Shown: positions 8,734 to 23,151 of the stretch, one piece after another
How positions within the stretch are numbered: position 1 is the first letter of the stretch
Layout of the letters: every line of letters begins with the position of its first letter
IMG/VR virus record: IMGVR_UViG_3300028591_000004
Span: 86,781-150,780 of that record
Origin: a virus
Taxonomy: Duplodnaviria > Caudoviricetes
DNA: 64,000 nucleotides
Strand: one strand, 5' to 3'
Notes under the pieces: model-generated
Told to the model about the DNA's origin: nothing
Database searches by the model: none
What the model saw: the letters and a program-made list of their open reading frames with translations, nothing else
Position numbers and translations under genes: made by a program

Positions 8734-8956
8734 TGCAAATAAAACGTGGGCTGTATCGTAAATTAAAGAAAGGCAAATGTACAGGATGCGATCATCCTGC
8801 TTACGCGCCAAGTAAAAATGTTAATCCATACAGAGCTTGTCGAAAATGCTGGAAGGACTCAACCAAAAGAAAAGATAAATATCCAAGCTTCCTGCGCTGT
8901 GAATGACAACGCATTTTATATAGGAAGAAATTTTTTATTTCAGGAGGACTCATAAT

Positions 8957-9538
8957 ATGAATATGGGTAATTGGAATGTCAACGTTAACACAAAGGGCTT
9001 GCCTCAGAAAGTTGCTTCTGCAATGTCTTCTCTGGGTGATACCATCATGGGAGCTCAATACGAAATGATTGCTTATCTTGGTTCTCAAATCGTAAATGGA
9101 ACAAACCATGCAGTCTTGGCAAAACAGACAATCGTGACTGGCAGAGATACTGAAAACATAGTTCTGTTGATTTTTAATGAAAAGCCCAACGATCCTGAAG
9201 CCAGCCTTGTTTCTATTGAACGAGTAGTAGAAAGCGGATCTCCTATGGGAGGTACAAAGGTAGACGTACATATTAATATTCCTGCTGATGCTCAGGCTGA
9301 GTGGAATGATGCGTTTATGGGATTTGTCGGCTCCGATATTGAACCTTTCGCATTGCTTGGAACTCAGATCGTCAAGGGCGTGAACTACATCTTTGCGGCT
9401 GAAATGTCTCCTCTGACAACAGAACCAAAGAAGGAAGCTGTTCTGGTCATTGTCAATGGACTGACTAAGCGTGTTTCTTTCGTTGATATTCTCAGCAACA
9501 AACATCAATCTGGCCTTGGGTATGCCTTCACCTGGTAA
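8957..9538 (+). CDS. Tandem two-domain protein with cystatin-like QxVxG motifs
   Basis: Internal duplication: LGSQIVNGTNH and LGTQIVKGVNY; RBS AGGAGG. Confidence 0.55.
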   Translation: MNMGNWNVNVNTKGLPQKVASAMSSLGDTIMGAQYEMIAYLGSQIVNGTNHAVLAKQTIVTGRDTENIVLLIFNEKPNDPEASLVSIERVVESGSPMGGTKVDVHINIPADAQAEWNDAFMGFVGSDIEPFALLGTQIVKGVNYIFAAEMSPLTTEPKKEAVLVIVNGLTKRVSFVDILSNKHQSGLGYAFTW

Positions 9539-9543
9539 TATTT

Positions 9544-9563
9544 AGGGGCTTCGGCCCCTTTTT
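9544..9563 (+). terminator. Rho-independent terminator
   Basis: AGGGGC-TTCG-GCCCCT-TTTT. Confidence 0.75.
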
Positions 9564-9564
9564 A

Positions 9565-9682
9565 TCGCATCGTAGTTTAAAGCAAATAGGGACGCCGAAA
9601 GCTGATATATATTTCAGACGTGAGATATTGATCAGGGAAAAACACCGACGGGAAGATGAGAGTTCGAGTCTCTCCGATGCGA
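9565..9682 (+). ncRNA. tRNA-like RNA F with D-loop insertion and no anticodon arm
   Basis: TCGCATCG/CGATGCGA 8-bp acceptor; TA-GTTTAA...GGAAAAAC D-arm halves; GAGAG-TTCGAGT-CTCTC canonical T arm. Confidence 0.72.
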
Positions 9683-9706
9683 CTATTAAATCTAAGGAGA
9701 AAAATA

Positions 9707-10015
9707 ATGAAGCTAGAAGAAATTATAAAAGGATTAGAAATTGAAAAAGAATGTGTAAGCAGAGACTGCAATAGAGACTGTGCTAATTGCGATATTGTGC
9801 AAGAAAAGGATTGGCTGTTGGATGTGTATCGATCCGCAATCAATACACTTAAAGAGCAAAATAAAGCCCTGAAGTTGATGGCTTTTCAATATTGCACGAT
9901 GGGATTCGGCAATGATATTACTTTTCATAATCGTTGTATGACTGCCGGAGAACATGCTTTTAAAACGTTAGGAATTGAAAACGGACAAAAGGTACCAGAA
10001 GACTGGATTGATTAA
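9707..10015 (+). CDS. Cys-rich hypothetical protein (IIKGLE-type N-terminus)
   Basis: RBS AAGGAG; MKLEEIIKGLE..C..C..CxxC..LKEQ. Confidence 0.65.
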   Translation: MKLEEIIKGLEIEKECVSRDCNRDCANCDIVQEKDWLLDVYRSAINTLKEQNKALKLMAFQYCTMGFGNDITFHNRCMTAGEHAFKTLGIENGQKVPEDWID

Positions 10016-10026
10016 GGAGCCATGAA

Positions 10027-10341
10027 ATGAAGGTTGGAGATTACATAGGTGGTTTATATCCAACAGAAAAAGACGGAAAACGTTTCTGGCGATTATGTGA
10101 TTCGAAAATCACAAAGATAGTCCAGAACAGCCGCGGTACAAAAGTTTATTCAAAGCGATTCTATCCGTTAGAGATTGAAGAAATTGAAGATGCTACAAAA
10201 ACTATGACAGAAGCAAAAGGTTGGATTAATACAAGAGATGTAGTTGAACTAACTCCGGAACTTAGATTGAAATGTGAGCGCTGGGTTGAGTGGGCAAATA
10301 ACAACCCGGATAAAGCTGTTGGTTTGATTAACGAAGGATAG
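10027..10341 (+). CDS. Hypothetical protein
   Basis: RBS AAGGAG; operon spacing. Confidence 0.6.
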   Translation: MKVGDYIGGLYPTEKDGKRFWRLCDSKITKIVQNSRGTKVYSKRFYPLEIEEIEDATKTMTEAKGWINTRDVVELTPELRLKCERWVEWANNNPDKAVGLINEG

Positions 10342-10353
10342 GAGAGAAATTAT

Positions 10354-10968
10354 ATGAGTTGGTGGACACACATCAAGGGAGTTGTTGAAGTCGACGTTCG
10401 TGGTCGTACACAGGCCGAGATTCGATATGTACTGGAATCGGTACTTGATCATCTGCCTCGGGTTACGGGGTCAGAAGGCGATATGAATGTTTATATTACA
10501 CAGGAAGCTGGACACAACAGTTCCAGCTCTTGCGATGAATTCGGCCTCCACACCAATAACCTGAAAGATATGTATGGATATAAATCACAGGAAAATGGAT
10601 GGCTTCAAACTCAAAGCCAATATATGTTGACGGTGGAAGGTGACTTACGTGATCGTGAATTCGAACAGACCAAACGTGAGTTCATGAAATGGTTATGCCG
10701 ACTGGCTAAAAGAATACGCATAGACGCTATTGTTATGAAGCTGTGGGCATACGACCAATCTATTGTGATTTCCGACGCCTCACCGTACGACAATATGTAT
10801 GAATGGCAAGATGGAGAGAAGCGGTGGACGGATTATTTAATGTGGGAACGAGATCCCATTAGCTACTGGCCTTTAAAACTGGCTGACAAATATTTCGATG
10901 ACAGATATATCAAACAAGAATTAAAACGACGCATTGATTGGAATGAAAGCTGTACAGGAGAAGAATGA
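10354..10968 (+). CDS. Hypothetical phage protein
   Basis: 204-aa ORF with RBS AGGAG. Confidence 0.7.
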   Translation: MSWWTHIKGVVEVDVRGRTQAEIRYVLESVLDHLPRVTGSEGDMNVYITQEAGHNSSSSCDEFGLHTNNLKDMYGYKSQENGWLQTQSQYMLTVEGDLRDREFEQTKREFMKWLCRLAKRIRIDAIVMKLWAYDQSIVISDASPYDNMYEWQDGEKRWTDYLMWERDPISYWPLKLADKYFDDRYIKQELKRRIDWNESCTGEE

Positions 10969-10971
10969 TGC

Positions 10972-11205
10972 ATGAATGAAGCAGGATATCGCCGCCGTCA
11001 TGAAAGAGTAGAACGCAAATGGAAGAGGTTGAAACCTAAAGCAAAACATTGTCCAAACTGCCGTTGCCATTCTATTGGATTAAATGATTTTTATTTTCGT
11101 AAATTTAAAAGATTCTTTCTTGAATGTGAAAATTGTCATTGGTGTGGGAAAAGTTATCCAACAATTAGAATGGCAATAAGAAGCTGGAATAAGGAGAGAG
11201 CATGA
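10972..11205 (+). CDS. Lar-like Zn-ribbon protein
   Basis: HCPNC..ECENC..AIRSWNK. Confidence 0.55.
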   Translation: MNEAGYRRRHERVERKWKRLKPKAKHCPNCRCHSIGLNDFYFRKFKRFFLECENCHWCGKSYPTIRMAIRSWNKERA

Positions 11206-11588
11206 TTGAATACACGTTAAAATTAAACAGTCAACAGGTTGCCAATATTCTTAAGGCGATTGACTTGTTGATGCGAATCAAAATAAATCAACCCGAAGAA
11301 ATCAGCCGGGATCTTCTGGAGGGAATGTATGACCGCATCGGTGTTGATGAGGTTTGCAGGCGTCGTGATAAAGCAAATGAATATCTCCGTTTGGCTTTTC
11401 TGGAAATCTTTCCGTCCTGGGATGAGGTAAACAAAGACGATGAATGGTATAGCCTTTACAACATATTACAGGCATTGAGATACCAACGACATCTGGCAGA
11501 ATTTCCAAATAGTAAAGGCGTTGATGCTTATCCTCCGATGCAATTTGGAGGGGAGCCAATTCCTGAATGTACATGGGAGGACAAATAA
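11202..11588 (+). CDS. Hypothetical protein
   Basis: ATGA overlap, RBS AAGGAG. Confidence 0.65.
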   Translation: MIEYTLKLNSQQVANILKAIDLLMRIKINQPEEISRDLLEGMYDRIGVDEVCRRRDKANEYLRLAFLEIFPSWDEVNKDDEWYSLYNILQALRYQRHLAEFPNSKGVDAYPPMQFGGEPIPECTWEDK

Positions 11589-11589
11589 T

Positions 11590-11778
11590 ATGACGTGGGA
11601 AGAGCATAAAAAGAAGACAACCCCTCTTGAATATATTGGACTCAAGGAAACCGACATTGAATGCCCTAACTGTGGCAAGAAAATTTACAAGCGCACTGAT
11701 ATAGTTCTGACTTCGTATCCTCCGACTTATAGGTACGAATGTAAATCTTGTGACTGGTATGGATTTGCAAACACTTAA
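11590..11778 (+). CDS. Zn-ribbon protein
   Basis: ECPNCG..YECKSC; RBS GGAGG. Confidence 0.6.
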   Translation: MTWEEHKKKTTPLEYIGLKETDIECPNCGKKIYKRTDIVLTSYPPTYRYECKSCDWYGFANT

Positions 11779-12137
11779 AGGAGAGCAAAATGACGAATTT
11801 TGAATATTTTTGTAACGGTGATACTGAAGCCGAAGTAATGGAGCAAGAATGGCGTGAGCAACAAAGGCAGAGAGAATACGCCGCTCAAGTGGAATACGAA
11901 CGGCAGATGATGGAAGCTTACGACGCCTATTGCGCACAAGAGGAATATTATGACCAAGAGTGATTTGGATTGGTTCTGGAAAGACCCACACAACTACGAA
12001 ACTGATTATATCGTAGGGACGATCACAGATAATGATCTTATTCAAACAAATGCGTTGGTTGAAATTGCGAAATGTCTCCATGGAATCATGCAACAGCTCG
12101 CAGAAATGAATCGTTATTTACCGCCGGAAGAGTAATC

Positions 12138-12398
12138 ATGAAGGAAAGACTCTTAGATAAGCTTAAACGCGAATTCCGTGAATGGAGAATTCGGCAGCTG
12201 AATCGCATTATCCAGAAAGCCGTAGAGAAGAAAGATGATTTAAGCTATCAAACGTTCATGATTTACACATGGGCACTGGACGAAACAACAGACTATCACC
12301 TGATTGCTGAGAGAAGCTATCCGGATCATAGGATCTACGGAATGGAAACAACATGGTATAAGGAGAAACAAGATGACAGGAATCCTGATGTCAATTAA
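12138..12398 (+). CDS. Hypothetical protein
   Basis: Operon spacing; ATG at 12138. Confidence 0.5.
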   Translation: MKERLLDKLKREFREWRIRQLNRIIQKAVEKKDDLSYQTFMIYTWALDETTDYHLIAERSYPDHRIYGMETTWYKEKQDDRNPDVN

Positions 12399-12825
12399 GC
12401 CTGAATGGTGCAAGAAAATCATTACGGGTGAAAAGACTATTGAGGTGCGGAAAACCAAGCCGGAACAGATACGTTTACCATTCCCTGTATATGTCTATGC
12501 AACCTTCGGTGGTGAAAATTGGTTTCGCTTTGGAGAGCATATGTCTGGACATGTGATTGGTCGGTTTATATGCGATGATATCAAATATTATTCCATCCCG
12601 TATCCGGCATGGAACACGGAAACAGATCCGGAACTGATCGAGAAGTCATGCGTGAACTATACCAGGCTTCATAACTATGCTGAACCGCAGGGATGTGTAT
12701 ACGGCTGGCATATAAAAGATTTTGAATTGTATGATCAGCCGTTGCCGGTTGGTTTTTTCCTGGATAGCAAAGGGATGAACTTCAAACGTGCCCCGCAGTC
12801 ATGGGGGTATGCAATCAAATGTTAA
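12373..12825 (+). CDS. ASCH/PUA-domain protein
   Basis: LMSIKPEWCKKIITGEKTIEVRK, VIGRF, YGWHI, RAPQSW. Confidence 0.85.
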   Translation: MTGILMSIKPEWCKKIITGEKTIEVRKTKPEQIRLPFPVYVYATFGGENWFRFGEHMSGHVIGRFICDDIKYYSIPYPAWNTETDPELIEKSCVNYTRLHNYAEPQGCVYGWHIKDFELYDQPLPVGFFLDSKGMNFKRAPQSWGYAIKC

Positions 12826-12961
12826 GCACAAAAATATTAAAAGCATATTACCATGTAAGATTAATTGTTTTGAATATGGAGTTGTGGTTCTTAAGAGGCT
12901 TGCGCAAAGTCATTAGAAAGATAATCAATCTTACTGAACGATATTGTCAAAGGAGAAAGAA

Positions 12962-13339
12962 ATGCCAAATTACGTGATTGATCCTCAGGTTTTTTATTGG
13001 ATGAATGTTTTTGGAATTTTACAGACAGTTTTAGCAGTATTTGGCGGAGCATGTGTAATAGCATTCTTCGGCTTAGCGAGCGGATGGGTATACAATTCGT
13101 GCGAAGTCAAAAAAGGTTACGATAGCAATTTGTTTTACCTGAAAGCATGTAAAAGATGGGCCATTGTAACAGGAATAATCGGTTTTGTTCTTGTCACAGC
13201 GGCGATTTTTATTCCCGGAAGAACAACGAGTATTGAAATGATGATCGCGAAGGCTGCTACGTTTGATAACGTTAATTGGACAGTTCAGCAAGTTAAAGAA
13301 GTCGTAGATTATATTGTTCAGGCGATTAAAGGCATATAG
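12962..13339 (+). CDS. Two-TM membrane protein
   Basis: Two hydrophobic segments; RBS AAGGAG. Confidence 0.65.
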   Translation: MPNYVIDPQVFYWMNVFGILQTVLAVFGGACVIAFFGLASGWVYNSCEVKKGYDSNLFYLKACKRWAIVTGIIGFVLVTAAIFIPGRTTSIEMMIAKAATFDNVNWTVQQVKEVVDYIVQAIKGI

Positions 13340-13845
13340 TGAAAAGAGGACGATTTAATGGTTATGTTTGTAATCGGATTGTTGATTGGTGTAGTAGTTA
13401 CTGTTTTCACTATAGCTGTAACAACAGCGAACAACGATAGAAAACAATAACCGATAAAGGAGAAAAAATGCGAGACGAATGTCATGATGAAACAGGCATG
13501 ATTATCAAACCGTTTGAAAAATGCGAGCGGTGTTCAGATTTTCCATGCAGAGAGTTGTGCAGAGCGTTGCAAGCTATTATCGACGGGGAAAACTAACTTT
13601 AATAACACTAAATAACACCTTAAATACGGAGGTTAAACTATATGTCTAACAAGAAATTTCCAAGAGATTGCCCACATGATTGCCCACATTTTCATGCGTG
13701 GGATATGTCGGTCGATGATTGGACTTGTGTATGCGATTTGTTGCAAGTACAAATTGATGAATGCGACGAGGATTTCAAGTTTATGTATTGTCCACAAAAT
13801 AGCGAAACTTAAATAACACTTTAACTGATGTGGAAGGAAATTTAG

Positions 13846-14331
13846 ATGAAGGGCTTAATTATGATTGGCTATCAGGGAATCGGAAAGAGTTCTTGTGCCG
13901 GGAAAGAAAACTGCATCGATCTGGAAAGTGGAAGTTTCTGGATTGGAGATCATCGTGCAGAAGACTGGTATATCCCGTATTGCAATATTGCTTTGCACCT
14001 TGCTGATCAAGGATACACAGTGTTTACCAGCTCGCACAAAGTTGTTGTTGACTACCTGAAATCTGTTCCTTTGATGGAGAATATCGGGAAAGTTGTTGTG
14101 TTCTGTCCAGAAGGTAGATTCAAGAAAGAATGGATTGCCAGATTACAGGAACGGTACGACCGAACCGGATTAAATAAGGACTACAAAGCCTTGATGAATG
14201 CGAAAGACAGATTCACTGAAGATATCCATAATCTTGTGAATTGTGGGCTTCCTGTTTATCAACCGGGATGGTATGCGGATTATGATTTAATGGACTATGT
14301 TCATAAGGCAAGATATGACTGGTGTTATTAA
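13846..14331 (+). CDS. P-loop nucleotide-kinase-like protein
   Basis: IGYQGIGKSS Walker A; IDLES. Confidence 0.7.
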   Translation: MKGLIMIGYQGIGKSSCAGKENCIDLESGSFWIGDHRAEDWYIPYCNIALHLADQGYTVFTSSHKVVVDYLKSVPLMENIGKVVVFCPEGRFKKEWIARLQERYDRTGLNKDYKALMNAKDRFTEDIHNLVNCGLPVYQPGWYADYDLMDYVHKARYDWCY

Positions 14332-14972
14332 ACTGCAATCAGATTCAACAGAAAGGAACAACACATTATCAATGCTTAAGACCTTATGTAATGATTGTCA
14401 GTACCGAAAAGGAATCGAATGCACGGCTGGTTTTTGCTGTCCATATGATATAAGTTATTATCAAAATAAGCAGATGCTATACAACCGAAAAGAAAAAATA
14501 AACATATGGAACAACACAAATGGTAAAGCAAATCAATATTTTGTTTGTAAAGGCGAACGAGTTTTGTTTTGGATTCCAAATTGGATTGGTCGAATCTTAA
14601 AAAAATAAAATAATTGGAGGATTAACATGAAAACTTTATATGAATTTGAAACTGCGTTCCAGGAACTAATGGATACTGCTTTAAACATACTTTCTCCCAG
14701 CCAATTCGAACAGCTTAAAGATTCTGTCTCTATGATTCTCAACGATTATGAAGAATGAGATTGTTAAGATGGAAGAGCTTACGATTTCATTTGATAAGTT
14801 AATACATCCAGATTTGGAAGCCATAAAAAAGCGAGATGCTTTTCTGTCAGATGAACATATGGATGAAATAGACAAGCTTTTATTGGATAATATCCAAGAG
14901 ACAACAAGCCAAAAATAATGATATATATTTAACTTACATGATGACAATATTAATGTTTAGGGAGATCTGAAT

Positions 14973-15266
14973 TTGTCAAAAATCAAAAAAGCATCTCTTT
15001 TAATTGCGTTCATTGTTTTTTCTATTGTTTTATCGGGATGTGTTAAAACAACAGATTATAAAGGCATAGAACGTACAGTTGAATACGGGCTGGTTGAAAT
15101 CGAATCTGTAAGTGGAGATGGTCAGTTTACAGTATGCTATGACCCCACCACAATGGTTTGCTATATGAAAATATCGAGACTTTATGGAATAGGAATAAGT
15201 CCATATTACATCATTGGAGAAGATGGAAAACCGGAAATCGCTATATACGGAGTGAATTATCGATGA
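14973..15266 (+). CDS. Lipoprotein
   Basis: Basic N-terminus, hydrophobic stretch, LSGC lipobox. Confidence 0.65.
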   Translation: MSKIKKASLLIAFIVFSIVLSGCVKTTDYKGIERTVEYGLVEIESVSGDGQFTVCYDPTTMVCYMKISRLYGIGISPYYIIGEDGKPEIAIYGVNYR

Positions 15267-15475
15267 ACAAAAATCAAAGACGCAACGAGCTTATTGCAAG
15301 ACTTGCAGTTCTTATAGCTGATACAGAATGGTCTGAGATTGTAGATCTGTCACCAGAAGATGCTCGGGATATTTTTGAATTGTTGAAAGAACAAGCTGAA
15401 GCCGTTCGGTGCGAAAGCTGCAAATTGTCGGGAAGCTAATTTTGTGACTGACGGAATAAGTCGTGGAGTTTAAGT

Positions 15476-15721
15476 ATGACAAAGGAATATATTGTTGAAG
15501 TTTGTAACGATCTGGTGATAAATGCTTTTGACCGTTTTGAAAACGACTGGTCACCAGATGAATTGATTCGGTGTAAAGATTGTAAATACGGAACACCTAT
15601 TATGAAATATGGTGCAATACCACTTATTTTATGTCGAGGAACAGATCATGACTTGAATTGGTTTTGCGCCGACGGAAAACGCAAAGAAGCAGAGCCCGGG
15701 AAGGAAGCACAGCCAGAATGA
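15476..15721 (+). CDS. RCKDCKY...WFCADG family Cys protein
   Basis: Shares its C-terminal module with 21267-21566. Confidence 0.65.
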   Translation: MTKEYIVEVCNDLVINAFDRFENDWSPDELIRCKDCKYGTPIMKYGAIPLILCRGTDHDLNWFCADGKRKEAEPGKEAQPE

Positions 15722-15939
15722 GCAATTTGGAACATTTAGTTGAAAACGGATTGTGTCTTCTCAGCGAAGGAAAATCCTACAAAGAATGGCGCGATATAAT
15801 GCAGGACGACTGCAATTGGGAAAACAATGAAAATATAACCCTCGATAATCTTTGGGAAATTTGTCAATACGTCATATTTGTATGGGATGTATATAAATAG
15901 ACTATAGGTTTTAAAAAAGTAAAAGGGAACGTATCTTAA

Positions 15940-16107
15940 TTGATGCCGTGACGGAATAGGTAGACGGGTTAGCGGGAGATAGCCAGCTGGGCAGAAGTAG
16001 CGCTACTGTTCGAAGATAAGGGGCAAGCTCGGAAGAATGAGAAGCCCATGCGACCCGACATCTTGCTAAAGGCTATCATGAAAGGTGCAAATCCTTTCCG
16101 GCATCAA
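15940..16107 (+). ncRNA. Anticodon-less tRNA-like RNA, copy B
   Basis: TTGATGCCG/CGGCATCAA acceptor; TGACGGAATAGGTAGACG; GAAAGG-TGCAAAT-CCTTTC T arm (compensatory changes vs copy A). Confidence 0.82.
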
Positions 16108-16128
16108 ACTTAAATAACACATTAATTA

Positions 16129-16266
16129 ATGCGGTGACGGAAAAGGTAGACGTAACTATTGGGAAGATGTGCCCACGACAGCAGAGAAGCGTAATGCGGT
16201 GAAGTATGACCCCGTTCGGTAAACGACAAAAGGCGCATCATGTGAGGTGCAAATCCTCACCCGTAT
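16129..16266 (+). ncRNA. Anticodon-less tRNA-like RNA, copy C
   Basis: ATGCGG/CCGTAT; ACG-GAAAAGGTAGA-CGT D arm; GATGTGCC/GGCGCATC cargo stem; GTGAGG-TGCAAAT-CCTCAC. Confidence 0.8.
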
Positions 16267-16677
16267 AATATTACTTTAAATAGGAGTTTTCCATGGAAAC
16301 ATTAGCAATCATTCAAACCGTTTGTCTTGTGTGGATAGCCGCTGCGACAGTTATAACTGCTGTTAATTCGTTTTTTAAATAGCATATTGTAAGTTATGGT
16401 TGTTGCGACAGATGGGGAACGGGCAACGTAATTGGTGGGCGTCCATAACTTAAATAACACCTTAATCGGAGGAAAAAATGACAGTAGAAGAATTGATCTC
16501 GGCATTGATAGATATGCCAAAGAACGCAAAGGTGATTGTTGTTGAACCCTTTCTGCAAGGAGTAAATATTAAGAACGTTAAGAACGTAGCTATCAACGAT
16601 AATGAGCTCGGTAAAGGAAAAGTAAAAATATACACAGTTTAAATAACACTTTAAGCAATAAAATAAACGAGGAAAAA

Positions 16678-16920
16678 ATGACTGAGAAAACTAATAACGG
16701 ATGGAATAAATTCAAATGCTGGTTGTTTGGACATAAACTTACATGCTGTGGAGATATTTTAAAAAGATGCTCTACGTGCCACGAAAAAGGACGTGTCTAT
16801 CCAGACGCTTGTAATTCATGTAATCGACGAGCAGGATGCAAAGACGGAACCGATTTGTCCACTCGTAATTGCGGTATGAAAAAGTCTTATTTTGAAGCAG
16901 GAGGTTCACATGCCATGTAA
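16678..16920 (+). CDS. Cys-rich hypothetical protein
   Basis: CWLFGHK motif, several CxxC. Confidence 0.55.
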   Translation: MTEKTNNGWNKFKCWLFGHKLTCCGDILKRCSTCHEKGRVYPDACNSCNRRAGCKDGTDLSTRNCGMKKSYFEAGGSHAM

Positions 16921-17053
16921 AAGATGTGGATACGCAAAATATCGAATGATTCACTATAAAAATGGACATAGATGCTCATGTGTCAAATGCGGATATTGCA
17001 CTAAACTCAAAGAAACTCCTGAACTTGCTATTGAAGCGTGGAATCAAAGATGA
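16910..17053 (+). CDS. Small Lar-like Zn-ribbon protein (not in ORF track)
   Basis: RBS AGGAGG; MPCKRCG..CVKCG..AIEAWNQR. Confidence 0.6.
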   Translation: MPCKRCGYAKYRMIHYKNGHRCSCVKCGYCTKLKETPELAIEAWNQR

Positions 17054-17072
17054 TTTAAATAGGAGTGTTTAA

Positions 17073-17279
17073 ATGACTTTTAGACCTATCGCAAAAATCG
17101 TACAGAAATCTGACGAAGATGGATGGCATTGTAGTGATGTAATAGAATATCGTTGCCCGATATGTTATAAGATACTCAAAGGATACAAGAAACAAGATGG
17201 GTGTATAGATTGCAACATCTTCTTTAATTGGGGAGATCACGAACCAAAGATTGTTGTAACTAAAAATATAAGTTGGTAA
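17073..17279 (+). CDS. Zn-ribbon protein
   Basis: YRCPIC..GCIDC; RBS AGGAG. Confidence 0.6.
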   Translation: MTFRPIAKIVQKSDEDGWHCSDVIEYRCPICYKILKGYKKQDGCIDCNIFFNWGDHEPKIVVTKNISW

Positions 17280-17505
17280 ACTAACACATTCATTAAGAAC
17301 AAAAGGTGGATAAGATGAGCATAACACTTATCAGTTTAATAATTAGTTCTGGGGTTATCATCGTTAGTATTATCCTCTGTCGCATTGCGTCAGAGCTTCG
17401 GTCTATTGCGTATCACTTGGAGCAACTGGATCGGAAGCACTCTAAAGAGTACAAAATATGAAATTACTTAAATAACACTTTATTACGCAAAAGAGGAGTT
17501 TTATC

Positions 17506-17712
17506 ATGGAAACAAAGGACAAGCCAAACAAAGTGACTGCGACTTTGAAGATTGTTATCACGGGCGAGTTTTACGACGATGAAGCTTCAGAGGAAACCTT
17601 GCGATATTGCGCAGAACAAGCTCTCGAAGATGCCGGATTCGATGTTGAAGTATCTGTAATGCGTAATAATCGAATCCCGTTTTCAGCAAATAGCAATGTT
17701 CAATGGACATAA
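17506..17712 (+). CDS. Hypothetical protein
   Basis: RBS GAGGAG; bounded by boundary motifs on both sides. Confidence 0.6.
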   Translation: METKDKPNKVTATLKIVITGEFYDDEASEETLRYCAEQALEDAGFDVEVSVMRNNRIPFSANSNVQWT

Positions 17713-17929
17713 CTTAAATAGGAGCTTTACGATGTTTAAAAAACTGATTGCCAAATGGAAATACAGACGATTCTGCCGAATGAATCGTTGCCCTGATTGT
17801 ATCTATCACGACTTCGTATTCGAAGGATGCGTTTTCCGTGGTAATCGTTGTCGTCATCCTGCGGCGAAACTGTGAATTAAATAACGCCTTGATACACATT
17901 GGAGCACATTGATGTGGGAGGTAGAGAGC

Positions 17930-18139
17930 ATGGACAATTTGAAGCCGTGCCCGTTTTGTGGACATAGAAAGCCCGTCCTGATAACACGCGGAAGGCTGGA
18001 CGGATGGCGTGATTATTTCTATGTCCTCTGTGATTATAATGACGGTGGATGTGGAGCAAGTGGCCAATGGTGCCATTACCCAGACGAAGCCGTCGAAGCA
18101 TGGAATAAAAGAACGTTAACAGACGCTGATACGCAATAA
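17930..18139 (+). CDS. Lar-family restriction-alleviation-like protein
   Basis: LKPCPFCG..V.C..GCGA..EAVEAWNKR. Confidence 0.75.
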   Translation: MDNLKPCPFCGHRKPVLITRGRLDGWRDYFYVLCDYNDGGCGASGQWCHYPDEAVEAWNKRTLTDADTQ

Positions 18140-18174
18140 AAAAGAGGCTAACACTTTAAGAACGGAGGAATAAA

Positions 18175-18384
18175 ATGTCTTTTGCAGATGCTGTTTTAAC
18201 CATGAAACAGGGAAAGAGAGTTCGTATGCCGTGGTGGGGAGGATATTGGTACATCGCAGACGGCACACTCAGAATACATGATATTAACGACAACGACATT
18301 AACGCATTTAGCGAAGAAAACAGAGAACCGCTTTACACTTTGTTGTTTATGACTGCAAACTGCTGGGAATTAGTTCCAGATTAA
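18175..18384 (+). CDS. DUF2829 / Tad2-like protein
   Basis: MSF..A...MKQGKRVR...W N-terminus and A..WE.V C-terminus. Confidence 0.6.
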   Translation: MSFADAVLTMKQGKRVRMPWWGGYWYIADGTLRIHDINDNDINAFSEENREPLYTLLFMTANCWELVPD

Positions 18385-18792
18385 AGGAGATGAACATCCT
18401 GAAAGTTTCAGACGTTATAAACAGAATAAACGATATAGAAAAATGCAGACGCTATCTGGAAGAATGGATGGATGGAAAAATTATGGATCAGAACCAGATT
18501 GATGCTATTGCGGACGATATTGATACGCATTTGGAAGCATATGCAGAGATGCTCATGAACAAAGAAATAAAATAACAAATTAAGAACGGAAAGAAGCATC
18601 GCTATGGTTATTAAAATAGCTGAAGACGGAACCGTTACATGGAAGTTTTATAAAAAATCATATAAGAAAGCCAGATGGAAAAGGCTCGGGGCACGACTGC
18701 TTGTAGACTTTCAAAAGGAAGCAGGAGCTCATGGTTTGATATTCGTTATTTGGAATCGATAAAATAAAACGTTAACTCAGAGAGGGATAGAC

Positions 18793-19005
18793 ATGAGCAA
18801 GTGGATGGAAAAGCTTACGCGCAAGACAGATAAATATAATCCGCGCAAGCGAAAGCAATATAAAAAATCCAGATATCGTAAACAAGCAAGAAAGTTTGAG
18901 ATATGGTGCGATAAAGAAGAGGCCGAAGCAGAAGAGTTTGAACGTCTGCATCCAAACTGGGTGGCCGAGCTTGATGAGATGCTCACTAAACAACATGTTA
19001 AATAA
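18793..19005 (+). CDS. Basic hypothetical protein
   Basis: RBS GAGGG; Lys/Arg-rich. Confidence 0.5.
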   Translation: MSKWMEKLTRKTDKYNPRKRKQYKKSRYRKQARKFEIWCDKEEAEAEEFERLHPNWVAELDEMLTKQHVK

Positions 19006-19016
19006 GGAATTGAAAA

Positions 19017-19265
19017 ATGGATATTCAAACTAATGTAGATATACTAATGCAAGCAGATTTTAAAGATTGGCATTATTATGAAATGCAACAAAAGAAAATG
19101 GAGCTTATCTCCCTTTTAAAAGAACGTGAAAAAGAAAATGACCAAGATGTTCCTTTAATCTCTCTTCGGGGTTATGCGTTGACGCATGAAGACGTTACGC
19201 GCATGGCAGAAGAAGTAGAAGATGAATTAAACAAAACAAGAAAAGAACTCGGATATAAAGAATAG
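19017..19265 (+). CDS. Hypothetical protein
   Basis: RBS AAGGA; operon spacing. Confidence 0.55.
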   Translation: MDIQTNVDILMQADFKDWHYYEMQQKKMELISLLKEREKENDQDVPLISLRGYALTHEDVTRMAEEVEDELNKTRKELGYKE

Positions 19266-19302
19266 CTGAAACAATAATTCAGCATGAAAAATCTAATTAC
19301 AA

Positions 19303-19480
19303 TGCTGTGGCGGAATAGGTAGACGTAAATACAAATTCACAGGGATGCAGCAGTAGACGGTTGGCGGGCATGCGAGGGTTGAGACTACGCGCCGAAAAAG
19401 CGGCTCCAGTCGTAGAGGACGTAAAAACTCGGAACTGTGAAGAATAAAGCCCGTATGCGAGGTGCAAATCCTCACCAGCA
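19303..19480 (+). ncRNA. Anticodon-less tRNA-like RNA, copy D
   Basis: TGCTG/CAGCA acceptor (compensatory); GCG-GAATAGGTAGA-CGT; GCGAGG-TGCAAAT-CCTCAC. Confidence 0.8.
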
Positions 19481-19500
19481 CAACATAAGTTCACATTGAT

Positions 19501-19691
19501 ATGCGGTGGCGGAATAGATTGCCATCATTCCTGCGGAGAGTAAATAAGGGCGTGTCTCTCATCCAAGTACACCTGATCACAGGGGCGCAGGTCACGGCTA
19601 AAGTAGACGCTAGGCAGAGCCGAACACGAGACAGATGGAGCAGCCGGAAGGTACACAGTCTGTCATGTGAGGTGCAAATCCTCACCCGCAT
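19501..19691 (+). ncRNA. Anticodon-less tRNA-like RNA, copy E, with 85-nt D-loop insertion
   Basis: 5' 17 nt and a 3' 32-nt block identical to copy A; GGAATAG and GTAGACGC separated by 19518-19602. Confidence 0.8.
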
Positions 19692-19811
19692 TTTATATGT
19701 AAACATCTTAGAAGAAATAAAATTGAGAAGTTACGCTGACAAGAAACGTGCAGAAAATGCACGTTCCAGTTGTTCGGAAATTCCGAACACTTGAAAGGCT
19801 GTGAATATTAA

Positions 19812-20159
19812 ATGAAGCTGACCGAATTAATTAATTGTATTAATTTGGCATATGAACACGAAAGGCACCCAGACACTATTGATGTTGTCATTGCAATTAA
19901 AGTACCGTACATGACGGTAGGACAGGCTCCATGTGTAGGCATCAAATCTACATATATGGGTTTCGACTGGGAAGCCGGTCAATTCAGAATTATACCGGAA
20001 GAAAATCTGATGTGTGTTAAACACGATGTGCCACAAGAAGTTATTAATTGGAATGATGTATATTGCTGCCCGAAGTGTGAGCATATACTCTCTATTAATG
20101 ACAAAGATCCTGATATTAAATTCTGTAGCAAATGTGGACAGGCGGTTGAATGGAAATGA
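19812..20159 (+). CDS. Hypothetical protein with C-terminal Zn ribbon
   Basis: CPKC..FCSKCGQAVEW. Confidence 0.65.
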   Translation: MKLTELINCINLAYEHERHPDTIDVVIAIKVPYMTVGQAPCVGIKSTYMGFDWEAGQFRIIPEENLMCVKHDVPQEVINWNDVYCCPKCEHILSINDKDPDIKFCSKCGQAVEWK

Positions 20160-20482
20160 ATAAACAAGAAATAATAGATTCCTTCGAAGGCCGCATCTTA
20201 GGAGGATATCTGCATTACGGTGGATATATCCATGTACCGTTACAAGAGGCTGAGGCCATTCTCTCGTTACTGAAATCACAAGACGATTCGATTGAAGCAC
20301 ATCAGACAGCCGAAGGATTCACTTTCTTCTCTACAGGATTAGTCAAACAAGGAGAAGAGCGAGGCTTATTGTTCGGTAAAATGATGATGCATGAATGGCT
20401 TGAAAAAGAATTGCTTTATCATGAGTTGATGACAGACGATATCCAGTCAATTTTTGAAGAAGCCAAGAAGAAATTTTTATAA
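20156..20482 (+). CDS. Hypothetical protein
   Basis: Starts in a junction ATGA. Confidence 0.6.
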   Translation: MNKQEIIDSFEGRILGGYLHYGGYIHVPLQEAEAILSLLKSQDDSIEAHQTAEGFTFFSTGLVKQGEERGLLFGKMMMHEWLEKELLYHELMTDDIQSIFEEAKKKFL

Positions 20483-20664
20483 GGTGAAGCAAAATGAAAT
20501 TACAAGTTGATATATTGGATTTGCGGAAAATGATCAAAGAAAAATGTGAAGAAATTATAAGCGATCCAAAGCTTGCATATGAATTCTTTTTGCGAATTTG
20601 TGATATCGAAGAAGACGAACGATTTATGATTGTTGACGACGATTTGCAGGAGAGTATGTAAAAA

Positions 20665-20982
20665 ATGACTGATAAAGAAAAGGTTATTAAAGGATTAACG
20701 CATTGCACCGCATGGGCCGGACTGCATGAATGTCAGCCGAAGGTTGGAGATGATTGTCCATATGTAGATGAGCCGGATTGCAAGCTTTCGATTATGTACG
20801 ATGCTCTTATCTTACTGAAGAAGCAGGAACCTGTTGAACCAATTGCTATTAAACAAGAAATGTTTGACGAATTTTATGGAGCTGTTTCACGTTGTCCAAA
20901 GTGTGATTGCATGTGGGTTATGTATAGGGAAAACGATATGCATTACTGCCCTGAGTGCGGTCAGGCGGTGAAGTGGGAATGA
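20665..20982 (+). CDS. MTDxEKVIKGL-family double Cys-module protein
   Basis: MTDKEKVIKGL..CPY..DAL.LLK.QEP..CPKC..YCPECGQAVKWE. Confidence 0.75.
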   Translation: MTDKEKVIKGLTHCTAWAGLHECQPKVGDDCPYVDEPDCKLSIMYDALILLKKQEPVEPIAIKQEMFDEFYGAVSRCPKCDCMWVMYRENDMHYCPECGQAVKWE

Positions 20983-21251
20983 CAGGAAAAGACTTGCGGT
21001 ATTCCTTGGTGTTGAAAGGGTTAAGACCATCTGAGTTAGCCAATCGTATTGGCGTTTCGAGAAGCATGATTTCAAAGTGGCTTTCCGGTGCATCAAAAAT
21101 TCCATCAAAGCACGAAGATGCCATCACGCATTTTCTTGGAGAAGTTACAGATGCTGAAGCAAAAGATATGCGAAGAATTGAAGAAATAGTATCAACTATG
21201 ACAAAAGAAGAAAAAATCAATGCTGTTCAATTTATATTGAGAACACTTTAA
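20979..21251 (+). CDS. XRE/Cro-like HTH regulator
   Basis: LRPSELANRIGVSRSMISKWLSG. Confidence 0.8.
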   Translation: MTGKDLRYSLVLKGLRPSELANRIGVSRSMISKWLSGASKIPSKHEDAITHFLGEVTDAEAKDMRRIEEIVSTMTKEEKINAVQFILRTL

Positions 21252-21266
21252 GACGGTGAAGTGGGA

Positions 21267-21566
21267 ATGAGATTAATTGATGCATATGCTTTACAAGATG
21301 AAATCCAAAAAAGCAAAATGGAGAATCCGCATAAAGATGCAAAAGTTGCAAAAAATCATGAGTTTGAACATGAGCACTTTATGAAGATGGTAGTCCTTCA
21401 ACCCACTGCACAGGAAGAAGTTGTTCGGTGCAAGGATTGCAAATATAGAAGTTTTTATTGCACAGAAGCAACAGATGGAACAACGTTGTATACGTGCCAT
21501 CATCCGTGTGCTAATGATGTTCCTCGCCCGGTTGATTGGTTCTGTGCAGATGGGAAAAGGCGGTGA
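21267..21566 (+). CDS. MRLIDA / RCKDCKY-family phage protein
   Basis: MRLIDA..QPTA..VVRCKDCKY..WFCADGKRR. Confidence 0.7.
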   Translation: MRLIDAYALQDEIQKSKMENPHKDAKVAKNHEFEHEHFMKMVVLQPTAQEEVVRCKDCKYRSFYCTEATDGTTLYTCHHPCANDVPRPVDWFCADGKRR

Positions 21567-21571
21567 GGTGA

Positions 21572-21796
21572 ATGGATCAGGAATATGACTGCCTTCTTCC
21601 CCTGGAGCATACAGACAACTGGGCGCTGTCAGCAAATGCAGTTCAGAGTATTACTGGAGCTCTTCAAAAACTATTTCCTGCACTGCGCCATGAAGCATTT
21701 GAAGAGCTGGGACGGTTGGCTTTATCACCACGAGGTTGCTGTAAGACTGTCAGATGGGACGAAAAGAACCGCAGGCGTCGTATGAAAAGGCGGTGA
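21572..21796 (+). CDS. Hypothetical protein
   Basis: Bounded by junction motifs. Confidence 0.45.
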   Translation: MDQEYDCLLPLEHTDNWALSANAVQSITGALQKLFPALRHEAFEELGRLALSPRGCCKTVRWDEKNRRRRMKRR

Positions 21797-21803
21797 AGTG
21801 GAA

Positions 21804-21971
21804 ATGAGTCTTGATAAAGCTATAAAACATGGTAAAGAACACCGTAAACCGTATACAGGGAGCAAAGCCATTGATAGAACGTGTCGAAATCATGGCGGTT
21901 GCCCGTGGTGCGAAGAAAACAGGAAGCACAAAATGCGAGACAAACATCCTCCAGAGCAAGAAGGTCGGTGA
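21804..21971 (+). CDS. Small basic Cys/His protein (not in ORF track)
   Basis: MSLDKAIKHGKEHRKPY..CRNHGGCPWC; starts and ends in junction motifs. Confidence 0.7.
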   Translation: MSLDKAIKHGKEHRKPYTGSKAIDRTCRNHGGCPWCEENRKHKMRDKHPPEQEGR

Positions 21972-21978
21972 AGTGGGA

Positions 21979-22116
21979 ATGACAAAAAGCGAAGTGAAAA
22001 AGGCCCTTGATGAAATAAGGGATATGTCCGATGAAGAAATAGCTGATAACGGTCAGTTTATACGCAAAGTATCAGAAGAAGCATTAGCTCTGATTAAAAA
22101 TCTGGAAAAGCGGTGA
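21979..22116 (+). CDS. Small hypothetical protein
   Basis: Junction-to-junction ORF MTKSEVKKAL..EKR. Confidence 0.6.
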   Translation: MTKSEVKKALDEIRDMSDEEIADNGQFIRKVSEEALALIKNLEKR

Positions 22117-22123
22117 AGTTGGA

Positions 22124-22372
22124 ATGACTGACAGGGAATACGCATACATTGTTAGAAGAACGCTTGAAAACAAAATAGCGTTTGCGGAAAACAACAATCA
22201 AAACGCTCTGCTCGTAACGCTTGATGTACTGAAAGATATTCTTGCCCTGCTGAAAAAACAGGAAGAACAAGAAGAAAGAGAATATAAAGAGAAGCATCCT
22301 TGCGAATTCTGTCAGGAGTATTTATGCGATGGCTGTCCTTATTGTGCTGACGGGGGAAAGGCGGGACGGTGA
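22124..22372 (+). CDS. MTDRE-family protein
   Basis: MTDRE..DILALLKKQE..CEFC..CDGCPYCADG. Confidence 0.65.
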   Translation: MTDREYAYIVRRTLENKIAFAENNNQNALLVTLDVLKDILALLKKQEEQEEREYKEKHPCEFCQEYLCDGCPYCADGGKAGR

Positions 22373-22680
22373 TGGCTGATAGGGAGAAAGTTATAAAAGG
22401 GCTGATTTCTTGTGCAAAATGGATGAAAAACAATGATACAGACGCTTGCAATAGTTGCCCTTATCATCATCATTTCAGTTACGATGACAATAATTGCATC
22501 GCAATGGTCAACAGCGAAGCCATTGAATTGCTGAAAGAGCAAGAAGCGGTAAAAATCGAAGTAAAAAAAATTAACAGCAGTGGAAGATGTGGACGATGCC
22601 CAAACTGCCTTATCGAATTGAATGAGATGGATTATCCGGATTATTGTGGTTATTGCGGCCAGAAGGTGAGATGGGAATGA
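22372..22680 (+). CDS. MTDxEKVIKGL-family double Cys-module protein
   Basis: MADREKVIKGL..CNSCPY..ELLKEQE..CPNC..YCGYCGQKVRWE. Confidence 0.75.
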   Translation: MADREKVIKGLISCAKWMKNNDTDACNSCPYHHHFSYDDNNCIAMVNSEAIELLKEQEAVKIEVKKINSSGRCGRCPNCLIELNEMDYPDYCGYCGQKVRWE

Positions 22681-22889
22681 AAGTCAGCTATTGCGAGAAA
22701 TGCAAATGTTACGAGCGTAGAAAATGGAGCGATTGTTACATTCCGAAGAATTATCACCCAATTGGAACGAGCCATGCATACGGATATTGTAAATTGTATT
22801 GTATGCGATGCAGTGAAATCAAGCCGTATATCTGCAAAGAAAGAGTGCAAATTGGTGAAAAGGAAAGGCAGCGAAGTGGAAATAATTGA
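22677..22889 (+). CDS. Cys-rich hypothetical protein
   Basis: Junction-to-junction ORF. Confidence 0.55.
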   Translation: MKVSYCEKCKCYERRKWSDCYIPKNYHPIGTSHAYGYCKLYCMRCSEIKPYICKERVQIGEKERQRSGNN

Positions 22890-23151
22890 CAGAGAGAAGG
22901 TCATCAACGATCTTTCAACTGCATTGGTTCAGATGCACGGCCCCGGTCGGTATACACCTGAAGATGTGGATGAATTGGAAGAGGCTGGGTGGCAAGCATT
23001 GAAATTCCTTGAATCCGAAGAAGGATATAAAGTCATATATACGCAGTGCGATGGAAGCATAGAAACAATTTGTGGATGCTGCGGATATGGCTTAGACAAA
23101 AAGTATGGTATTTGCCCGAAGTGTGGAAGGCCGGTGAAATGGAATGATTGA
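22876..23151 (+). CDS. DREKVI-family protein (GTG start; usual ATG reads ATA)
   Basis: IDREKVI..CGCCG..CPKCGRPVKW. Confidence 0.6.
   Translation: MEIIDREKVINDLSTALVQMHGPGRYTPEDVDELEEAGWQALKFLESEEGYKVIYTQCDGSIETICGCCGYGLDKKYGICPKCGRPVKWND

Follow-up and report, generated by a model that had tools for sequence, protein, structure and literature searches.

What is the role of a short sequence that recurs, always in the same orientation, between the tiny genes of one region of a large gut phage's genome? The window analysed here is the final 64 kb of the 150,780-bp genome. An array of cassettes separated by the motif runs along its + strand from 13358 to 19265 and comprises about 25 tiny genes (29–161 aa) and two tRNA-like RNAs. 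The array proteins mostly belong to no family, although many are zinc ribbons and two are Lar-like, and the cassette genes that flank the copies are mutually unrelated. The copies and the units beside them are as follows:

13598..13623 (+): tandem motif pair, a degenerate copy (13598–13613) and one with two mismatches (13608–13623), between the 42-aa gene 13468–13596 and the 56-aa gene 13642–13812
13809..13824 (+): exact copy; TAA 13810–13812 ends the 56-aa gene; the 161-aa gene 13846–14331 lies downstream
16110..16125 (+): copy with one mismatch, between tRNA-like RNA B (about 15945–16106) and RNA C (about 16130–16268)
16276..16286 (+): half copy with RBS (TTAAATAGGAG), upstream of the 29-aa gene 16293–16382
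16450..16465 (+): copy with one mismatch, after a 60-nt stem-loop element (16390–16449) and before the 54-aa gene 16478–16642
16639..16654 (+): exact copy whose TAA is the stop of the 54-aa gene
17055..17065 (+): half copy with RBS (TTAAATAGGAG), upstream of the 68-aa gene 17073–17279
17279..17287 (+): core of a degenerate copy (AACTAACAC), past the stop of the 68-aa gene 17073–17279
17468..17483 (+): copy with one mismatch, 6 nt past the stop of a 48-aa gene and before the 68-aa gene 17506–17712
17714..17724 (+): half copy with RBS (TTAAATAGGAG), past the gene 17506–17712
17877..17892 (+): copy with three mismatches, abutting the TGA of a 47-aa gene; the Lar-like gene 17930–18139 lies downstream
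18148..18159 (+): partial copy (CTAACACTTTAA), upstream of the 69-aa gene 18175–18384
18381..18389 (+): left half with RBS (TTAAAGGAG), at the stop of the gene 18175–18384
18568..18583 (+): variant copy with three mismatches, upstream of the 52-aa gene 18604–18762
18760..18775 (+): variant copy with three mismatches, overlapping the stop of the 52-aa gene
18998..19009 (+): half copy with RBS (TTAAATAAGGAA), at the stop of the gene 18793–19005

Searching the window for TTAAATAACACTTTAA with up to three mismatches returned nine matches, which start at 13608, 13809, 16110, 16450, 16639, 17468, 17877, 18568 and 18760. They follow the pattern ACTTAAATAACAC(Y)TTAA, span 13608–18775 and lie on the + strand only. 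In shuffled windows the same search gave 2.21 matches on average and seven at most, and none of 100 shuffles reached nine; the cluster is non-random and one-stranded. The whole 150,780-bp genome holds 12 matches to TTAAATAACACTTTAA, namely the nine of the cluster and three scattered, weak ones with three mismatches each. The half copy TTAAATAGGAG, in which the left half is fused to an RBS, is exact at 16276, 17055 and 17714, again on the + strand only. Together, full, partial and half copies mark about 17 junctions in about 5.5 kb. An earlier note on this DNA had described several copies in one orientation, a tandem duplication, a copy between RNAs B and C, copies that supply a TAA stop (here those of the genes ending at 13812 and 16642) and the fusion of the left half to an RBS, and all of this was recovered. 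It had placed the end of the cluster at 18590, which is too early, as partial and half copies reach about 19009.

The same note saw the motif as a quasi-palindrome of 5-bp arms around a 6-bp spacer. Such arms are literally present; however, they pair no better than the column composition predicts. Arm pairing was 78.9% compared to 77.6% in shuffles, and 145 of 500 shuffles reached the observed value; covariation was not significant. Conservation is asymmetric: the invariant positions form an asymmetric core, A.TAA, and position 12 in the right arm is variable. Many copies outside the window, too, are preceded by a stop codon, T(G/A)A, at a constant offset (−4 to −2). Such a stop was counted in 26 of 84 viral instances and, as judged by T[AG] at −4,−3, in 41 of 113 metagenome instances. 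Because of this constant offset, the unit is nearer to 20–22 nt. The RBS that follows a copy lies anywhere between 0 and more than 40 nt away. Conservation is higher in the motif than in its flanking sequence, and half copies break after position 5, 7 or 8.

We also examined other phages for the motif. The closest relative by the 161-aa gene, G001, carries eight copies (up to two mismatches), all forward and within 9 kb, compared to one forward and no reverse match for the pattern read backwards at up to three mismatches. In small complete phages of 50–58% GC, perfect copies were found at a GC step behind tail-fibre-like genes. The motif is nearly unchanged between phages of 41% and 50–58% GC, and in unrelated phages the same motif stands beside unrelated genes. 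This near-perfect conservation across very different GC contents suggests that some factor may read the motif; a model of pure homology does not need one. Among the 12 records compared, G054 has the most ORFs in common with the phage (130) and is without the motif, which is thus dispensable. No protein common to all motif-bearing genomes was found. The motif is not one of host genomes.

The earlier note had proposed comparing the breakpoints of gene gain and loss with the motif. Across relatives, in a strain variant and in the metagenome contig L364, breakpoints do fall in the motif, which bounds units that were gained, lost, replaced or reordered; its description as a delimiter of cassettes holds. 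In L101, homology starts at 13808, at the exact copy 13809..13824, and the same layout of RNA, motif and RNA is found there as for RNA B and RNA C in the window. In L102, homology stops at 13813 and resumes at 13820 with the gene order swapped. The blocks shared with L008 and L410 end at 16465, the last base of a copy. The gene 17506–17712 has a homologue of 91% amino acid identity in a small phage (G048/L077), where a full exact copy follows it, and homology ends at 17720. In L043, the shared blocks 18149–18385 and 18605–18770 occur in swapped order; the homologue of the 69-aa gene 18175–18384 has a motif copy on each side, and the position that matches the half copy 18381–18389 holds an exact full copy. 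Furthermore, five cassette genes common to motif-bearing records stand beside other neighbours there, and every one of the five has a full or half copy next to it.

The same coincidence is seen within a lineage. In a strain that is about 96–99% identical (two DNA runs from another study and contigs L355 and L384), 16655–16898 is replaced by a 151-nt cassette, which starts directly after motif base 16654 and ends as a half copy with AGGAG attached. In run X2, one contig connects 19689 with 17710, near the half copy 17714..17724; the evidence from runs consists of contigs, in which joints with short sides are unreliable. Contig L364 carries six window units at 70–94% identity in a different order, with five motif copies (up to two mismatches) in 3 kb. 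Of the 12 block ends there, 9 have a full or half copy no more than 6 nt away in the window, in the contig or in both. Blocks shared with L364 end at 13609 (inside the tandem pair), 16456 and 18781, and start at 16267 and 16446. Over 79 IMG/VR loci, 13 of 394 internal block ends fall inside the motif span, which makes up 0.52% of the sequence; these 13 represent about six independent events. Against a null restricted to intergenic positions, the enrichment in the 5-kb array is by estimate weak (6 of 11 informative ends, about 0.3 expected). Other block ends lie away from any copy (16398, 18605, 16899 and both RNA C block ends in L364), and some partner junctions are at a Shine-Dalgarno sequence rather than at the motif. 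Joints in phage mosaics usually lie at gene boundaries anyway.

We lean, with modest confidence, towards the motif being a portable intergenic linker, with recombination over short homology shuffling the cassettes there. A unit would be made up of a single tiny gene or a few, or of tRNA-like RNAs, would bring its own leader and RBS, and would end at a stop codon abutting or inside the motif. As many junctions in many phages repeat the same 18–22 nt, recombination in this stretch could delete, replace, reorder or transfer units and leave the genes undamaged. The driving force of the exchange, we infer, is short homology, acted on by the phage's own recombination functions (its genome encodes a Sak-like annealing protein, NinB/Orf and a resolvase) or used in template switching. 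A unit lost between two direct copies may re-enter at another copy, which would give changed orders, and half copies joined to an RBS may be scars left where a copy crossed over with a different short shared sequence. The motif itself would be transcribed within longer RNAs. The motif, its clustering on one strand and the coincidence of block ends with it, within and between lineages, are shown; the enzymology, this excision and reinsertion route and any further cis function are what we infer, and neither circular cassettes nor deletions between two copies were seen directly in the contigs of the runs. A length of 16–18 bp is short for homologous recombination, and the part played by enzymes is a presumed one.

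The earlier note offered crossover sites of a cassette system, operators and RNA-processing sites as readings, and likened the motif to the core sites of tyrosine recombinases. The specific model of such a core site finds no support, whereas the breakpoints at the motif stand. More generally, a dedicated site-specific recombinase or sequence-specific nuclease might excise and reinsert the cassettes, as happens in integrons with attC and in Xer systems with pdif modules. The copies share a single orientation and, as in integron cassettes, close the units on the 3′ side, the stop standing at a constant offset; the cassette order is permuted in L364, and the sequence stays nearly constant between phages of 41% and of 50–58% GC. 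Moreover, an Xis-like HTH_17 gene, a tyrosine integrase and an HNH nuclease lie 6–9 kb upstream in the phage, and an integrase homologue is present in four of seven motif-bearing compared to one of five motif-free complete or large records. However, the 5-bp arms show neither symmetric conservation nor covariation, and crossover at a single fixed position was not found: the junction points vary (after 5, 7 or 8), some partner joints are at an RBS, and the right joints of the replaced cassette are at AGGAG. The integrases of the cluster-bearing phages G000 and G001 are only 24% identical, no integrase homologue was found in three small motif-bearing phages, and the motif is absent from G054, which does carry a 72%-identical Xis-like gene together with an integrase. 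Nor is any protein shared across all motif-bearing genomes, and on balance we consider such a dedicated site unlikely. Its widest form, a docking site of a cross-family exchange system in which a candidate enzyme would cut out single genes and small RNAs in circular form and insert them again at any of the copies, is rather unlikely. If it were true, unrelated rumen phages, from 33-kb temperate to 151-kb long-tailed ones, would share one accessory-gene pool that extends to receptor-binding modules, and this would be an integron-like phage system with a 20-nt site. That the copies are mere relics of the tandem duplication of an ancestral gene and its spacer, without any role, is extremely improbable: small zinc-ribbon proteins are frequent among the cassette products and there is a tandem copy, but the flanking genes are mutually unrelated, unrelated phages have the motif beside unrelated genes, and the motif is better conserved than its flanks, which appears to refute this reading largely already.

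The motif could also be primarily a transcription signal, a compact promoter for a phage or modified host polymerase, with recombination as a by-product as for the PeSL elements compared below. Promoters of single-subunit polymerases are short, asymmetric and co-oriented, and the motif looks similar, with 18–22 nt, asymmetry and a position upstream of, and co-oriented with, genes and RNAs. The + arm is poor in sigma-70-like sites (35 found compared to 54.7 expected in 6000–25000), and the phage encodes two YonO-like single-chain RNA polymerases with DxDGD motifs, P0001 and P0002, which match PF05183 and phrog_8308, respectively. The latter family also matches in Bacillus subtilis, in what is presumably YonO. 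The copy-bearing G001 and G034 also encode two such polymerases, while G002, without motif and polymerases, has in the same kind of region eight forward consensus TTGAC(A/T)-16/17-TATAAT promoters (11–12 of 12 matches) in 20 kb, one of them preceding the homologue of the 56-aa gene, where the window has the tandem copy. The YonO promoter is not defined in the available part of PMC5467207. Nevertheless, the presence of the motif does not follow that of the polymerase. None of 49 records with a P0002 relative (32–73% identity) has the cluster, each having at most two matches at up to two mismatches, the same as the backwards control; 11 of the closest 12 have no match at all. Conversely, the polymerase family is missing from 47 of 50 records searched (46 of them motif-bearing), among which are complete small phages whose copies are perfect. 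In G054, both polymerases are present, as is a small-gene region, but the motif is absent. The motif is positioned relative to the upstream stop and not the downstream start, half copies lack its core, and contigs of an RNA library read through two copies, although these may include DNA carry-over. Taken together, a promoter is quite unlikely. A sigma-70 promoter was rejected, as no site of 11–12 of 12 exists on the + strand of 6000–25000, in contrast to eight in the relative L102, and the motif contains no such hexamer pair; so was a terminator, as the 5-bp A-T arms pair no better than in shuffles, no terminator-like site was found at the copies and the contigs of the RNA library continue across two of them. 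A binding site of a regulatory protein or RNA-processing factor is an improbable explanation. As a stoperator-like operator, it would block elongation through accessory genes; as a cleavage site, it would separate polycistronic units and release the tRNA-like RNAs. The asymmetry, the single orientation relative to transcription and the short intergenic gaps at stops match stoperators. Further points in favour are that copies, both in the window and in L101, abut tRNA-like RNAs at their 3′ and 5′ ends, and that the variants TTTGA and TTGAA would retain G-U pairs in RNA. However, the copies are limited to 5 kb and not genome-wide, covariation is not significant, no repressor-like gene or domain was found among the scanned window ORFs, and the same sequence in unrelated phages needs a common factor, of which none was found.

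Phage genomes are mosaic, and the sequences at their joints are rarely visible. In this array of about 25 tiny genes and RNAs, the joints carry one short motif; it reveals reordering between near-identical strains and is found again behind the tail-fibre genes of unrelated phages from a similar habitat. As a portable linker, it would offer a handle on the movement of accessory, possibly anti-defence, genes and host-range modules between phages, and hypervariable regions of gut viromes could be searched for with it. Should an enzyme recognise the motif, this would be a new cassette system.

Among known systems, the promoter-early stem-loops (PeSLs) of T4-type phages are described in the available part of PMC2839356 as a repeated intergenic element in a hyperplastic region of small orphan genes, which begins at the upstream stop codon, ends at the RBS and sets the limits of the indels and replacements that distinguish related phages. 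The route proposed there is that a unit leaves as a circle and enters again at another copy. PeSLs are about 100 bp long, with a sigma-70 promoter and a terminator stem-loop as components (PMC2839356; see also PMC4122927). Our motif is likewise repeated, intergenic and concentrated among small orphan genes, and it holds the indel and replacement joints of related phages. In contrast to PeSLs, it has 18–22 nt, contains neither the sigma-70 promoter nor the terminator stem-loop, and is common to unrelated phage types of differing GC, whereas PeSLs occur among close relatives. Integron attC sites are imperfect palindromes of 57–141 bp that are cut by IntI at a fixed bond. The motif resembles them in having one orientation at the 3′ end of promoterless single-gene units of variable order and content, but differs in its 5-bp arms, the lack of covariation, the variable junctions and the lack of a conserved integrase. 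Stoperators lie genome-wide in short intergenic gaps near stops and co-evolve with one repressor. Those of Cluster A mycobacteriophages are described in the available part of PMC9283540 as short and asymmetric, with a single orientation relative to transcription. The motif shares the asymmetry, the orientation and the intergenic gaps near stop codons; however, its copies lie in 5 kb, no repressor was found in the window ORFs, and it occurs in unrelated phages. The boundary or linker sequences of lambdoid phages are short, stand at module joints and have been proposed to guide recombination, but are weakly conserved and few. Like these, the motif is a short conserved sequence at the joints of units, and it goes beyond them with up to about 17 copies in 5.5 kb and with direct cases of reordering.

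Allowing up to three mismatches, TTAAATAACACTTTAA matches the window nine times, always on the + strand and between 13608 and 18775, whereas shuffled window sequence gave a mean of 2.21 matches and none of 100 shuffles reached nine. Only three further matches, scattered and with three mismatches each, were found in the rest of the 150,780-bp genome. The earlier note had described copies in a single orientation, and this is borne out, as are the tandem duplicate near 13597 and the left halves fused to an RBS at 16276, 17055 and 17714. The following forms were also recorded:

13598, + strand, tandem partner copy (sequence inspection)
17279 and 18148, + strand, degenerate copies (sequence inspection)
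16276, 17055 and 17714, + strand, left halves fused to an RBS, exact TTAAATAGGAG
18381 and 18998, + strand, further left halves fused to an RBS

Between 13597 and 19012 there are, by our reading of the sequence and gene map, about 24 junctions; some form of the motif occupies about 17, and the motif-free junctions are mostly overlapping, coupled gene pairs. As the earlier note had placed them, copies lie at or just past a stop codon, with an RBS 0–14 nt downstream, and one copy separates two tRNA-like RNAs; sequence and gene map agree on this.

The phage contig has a terminal overlap of 127 bp, and the window is its final 64 kb. Runs holding this stretch come from sheep and other gut metagenomes, and 13000–19000 found no match in the phage GenBank collection. 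Strong Shine-Dalgarno sites point to a probable Firmicute host. The genes are arranged as follows:

within 1–29,400, + strand, RNA ligase, RNase H and an HNH nuclease at 4649–5458
within 1–29,400, + strand, Xis-like HTH_17 gene, tyrosine integrase and HU protein
within 1–29,400, + strand, about 100 tiny genes
from 29,500, − strand, lysis, tail-fibre and other virion genes
elsewhere in the genome, replication/recombination genes (DNA polymerase, primase-helicase, Sak-like annealing protein at genome 69833–70582, SSB, NinB/Orf, resolvase)
rest of the genome, outside the window, reverse transcriptase, head genes and a 5,665-aa tape measure protein

The HTH_17 (excisionase-like) gene and the integrase lie at 5975–7332. 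The + arm has just one good sigma-70-like site, at 6180–6208, and it falls between these two genes. Apart from this pair, the phage looks lytic. In the close relative G054, the Xis-like gene is 72% identical to that of this phage and the integrase merely 28%. Several Lar-like (restriction alleviation) small proteins are found among the cassettes (10972–11205, 16910–17053 and 17930–18139), which hints that the array holds anti-defence genes. The tape-measure frame (genome 5560–22557, − strand, 5,665 aa) has a domain at residues ~1,900–2,500, and the ~1,900 residues N-terminal and 2,800 C-terminal of it match no family. For a second giant protein of the virion arm (2,756 aa, window 49938–58208), Pfam gives a CBM_5_12 module only, and it also matches two PHROGs families of unknown function.

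We handled the motif as an asymmetric word, since its arms pair no better than in shuffles and its core columns, A6, T8, A9 and A10 of ACTTAAATAACACTTTAA, are invariant. Across 18 copies, taken from this phage and from the related G001, arm pairing reached 78.9% of cells. In shuffles the figure was 77.6%, and 145 of the 500 matched or exceeded the observed value; when the arms were slid by one column, pairing was still 53–61%. The palindrome proposed in the earlier note is not upheld by these values, and a hairpin or cruciform was rejected because the arms show no covariation. Many instances have an upstream stop at a fixed offset from the motif, and spacing on the downstream side is free. Among other records, 26 of 84 viral instances have a stop codon T(G/A)A at −4 to −2, and 41 of 113 metagenome instances have T[AG] at −4,−3; base composition would, by our estimate, place a stop at this offset in about 5%. 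The motif has some likeness to the T7 gene 10 leader. We judged a translation enhancer unlikely, because the spacing between motif and RBS ranges between 0 and more than 40 nt.

Several other identities were rejected. The motif has no −35/−10 pair, and a sigma-70 promoter was rejected; along the + arm from 6000 to 25000, sigma-70-like sites are scarce (35 against 54.7 expected). An intrinsic terminator was rejected since the copies have no terminator-like site. A host regulatory motif was rejected on the basis of 92 exact matches in 596 billion bases of GTDB genomes, among which only that in L131, from a rumen Clostridiales MAG, has a phage-like context as judged by eye. Searches for tRNAs and Rfam families, neighbouring RNAs included, returned no known RNA at or beside the motif, and no relevant paper on the motif string was found in the searchable literature, as judged by title and the start of the abstract. 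RNA-library contigs end at 13584 and 17874, just ahead of copies, but these ends are too few and of too low depth to support a conclusion.

A second conserved junction, GGCGGTGAAGTGGGAATGA, is present in 10 copies between 20964 and 23730 and links a row of small zinc-ribbon genes there. It combines an RBS and a start codon with the overlapping stop codon that ends the upstream gene. The motif TTAAATAACAC stands immediately before it in the metagenome contigs L364 and L355, and the junction copy at 21252 is preceded by AACACTTTAA, a right half of the motif. That another cassette set is joined in this way supports a general linker picture. The tRNA-like RNAs form a family with conserved ends (5′ GCGGTG.GGAA.AGGTAGAC, 3′ GTGAGGTGCAAATCCTCACCCGC) and variable middles of 60 to >300 nt, and were not recognised by ARAGORN or Rfam. 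They were located at:

window 15945–16106, 16130–16268 and ~19307–19692, tRNA-like RNAs
window 8237, T-arm word of the tRNA-like RNAs
genome 54481–54560, and locus L101 1480–2330 and 8877–8990, further tRNA-like RNAs

The T-arm word has six occurrences in this genome; G001 has seven and includes a tandem of three units. Many metagenome contigs join the tRNA-like ends via merely 24–37 other letters, and RNA-library depth is higher over these RNAs.

The 161-aa gene (13846–14331), used as query, led to four IMG/VR records. In G001 (126 kb, terminal repeats) this gene is 91% identical at the amino acid level, and eight copies with at most two mismatches, all forward, lie within 109,930–118,618. 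In G002, G003 and G004, motif matches were no higher than in a control pattern read backwards. DNA similarity among these phages covers single genes only, and the blocks start or stop in the motif:

13808–14331, shared with locus L101; a copy flanks the gene on both sides
13639–13813 and 13820–14331, shared with L102 of G002; the two genes in reversed order
18149–18385 and 18605–18770, shared with locus L043; order swapped, copies at the ends
block shared with L077 of G048; homology ends at 17720
16398–16465, shared with locus L008

Two DNA runs from a different study contain a strain ~96–99% identical to this phage, in which other sequence takes the place of 16655–16898. On the left, the joint coincides with the final base of the motif copy at 16639–16654, and the same replacement is found in the contigs L355 and L384. 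The inserted cassette (151 nt) is another small zinc-ribbon unit, which ends on the right in a half copy fused to AGGAG. The clearest reordering was observed in L364, where six window units (tRNA-like RNA C, genes 18604, 13468 and 16478, a stem-loop element and gene 16293) recur in a different order with 70–94% identity. This contig has five copies (at most two mismatches) in 3 kb. In one or both of the compared sequences, 9 of the 12 block ends are no farther than 6 nt from a copy or half copy. The 60-nt stem-loop element (16390–16449, AAGTTATGG...CCATAACTT) immediately precedes a motif copy; it is 83–90% conserved in L008/L410 and L364, where it acts as a separate cassette. Shared blocks, strain replacement and reordering have ends at the motif, and its reading as a cassette boundary is supported. 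The enrichment of joints at the motif is strong against all sequence and, by our estimate, modest against an intergenic-only null within the 5-kb array.

The exact 17-mer was found in 95 IMG/VR stretches, many of them chance matches; several dozen have the prefix AC, a stop immediately before and an RBS or tRNA-like RNA after. In complete small phages (33–46 kb; GC 50–58%, against 41% in this phage), perfect copies, one or two per genome, immediately follow a large tail-fibre-like gene and precede lysis-type genes, and GC steps there from ~40% to ~55%. In one of these phages, gene 17506–17712 recurs at 91% identity with a full motif copy after it. When 79 loci were compared all against all, 13 of 394 internal block ends, which represent about six independent events, fell in the motif span (0.52% of sequence). 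In most events the fibre genes differ, and homology sets in at the motif and extends downstream of it. No protein was common to all motif-bearing genomes when ORFs of this phage of at least 50 aa were compared with 12 records by tblastn. A zinc-ribbon family of ~100 aa was present in five of seven motif-bearing records, yet also in three of five motif-free ones.

The single orientation of the copies, their position at the 3′ end of cassettes and the permuted cassette order would also fit a recombinase site. That the motif stays nearly perfect in such different GC backgrounds is difficult to account for unless something reads the sequence, and we retain this explanation on that ground, though as an unlikely one. 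The arms are short and asymmetric, half copies break at variable points, some partner joints lie at an RBS, motif-bearing genomes share no recombinase, and the integrases of the two cluster-bearing phages are dissimilar. The tyrosine-recombinase core site suggested in the earlier note is therefore not supported.

We think it quite unlikely that the motif is a promoter for the two YonO-like single-chain RNA polymerases of this phage, P0001 (859 aa, PF05183 match, ADYDGD) and P0002 (942 aa, phrog_8308 match at 8e-171, DVDGD), both encoded outside the window:

genome 41056–43635 (L003:3056–5632) and 66536–69364 (L004:9536–12361), YonO-like polymerases with DxDGD motifs

The copy-bearing G001 and G034 have two such polymerases each, and G002, which has neither copies nor polymerases, carries eight forward consensus sigma-A promoters in 20 kb of a similar region, one of them preceding the homologue of the 56-aa gene at the site of the window's tandem copy. 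Upstream of the 161-aa gene, L102 has the right end of the motif only and no promoter. However, none of 49 records with a P0002 relative (32–73% identity) has a motif cluster, 11 of the 12 closest polymerase-bearing records have no motif match at all, and the polymerase family is absent from 47 of 50 records searched, 46 of which bear the motif. G054 has both polymerases and 130 ORFs in common with this phage, yet no motif; it lacks most of the 22-kb accessory arm. Moreover, the motif is linked to the upstream stop rather than the downstream start, and an RNA-library contig (record 27, 16321–16823) reads through two copies, although DNA carry-over is possible. A crude exact-word test showed no lineage-specific repeated 11-mer in the polymerase-bearing G056, G062 and G054. 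The available text of PMC5467207 gives the YonO promoter as undetermined, and that of 10.1101/2020.03.07.982082 describes early transcripts of the crAss-like virion polymerase as having no common motif.

Relatives of the YonO-like polymerases are present in at least 80 IMG/VR contigs. In the close relative L217, the polymerase match spans 3.9 kb and holds no ATG-started ORF of at least 600 aa, which suggests an insertion in the gene. The eight promoters in L102 (1–20000) are near-consensus TTGAC(A/T)-16/17-TATAAT with 11–12 of 12 matches; seven have a TG before the −10 and one overlaps a 13-bp stem-loop (9482–9511). This architecture looks like that of PeSLs, apparently in a phage of a Firmicute-type host. 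L102 also has a decayed tandem AAATAACAT after the 161-aa gene.

Most likely, the motif is a linker with short-homology recombination. Its repeated presence would permit recombination by which units may be deleted, replaced, moved or transferred. This linker-recombination model is the one proposed for the PeSLs of T4-type phages, according to the available text of PMC2839356. Unlike PeSLs, the motif described here has no promoter and stem-loop, and it crosses phage families.
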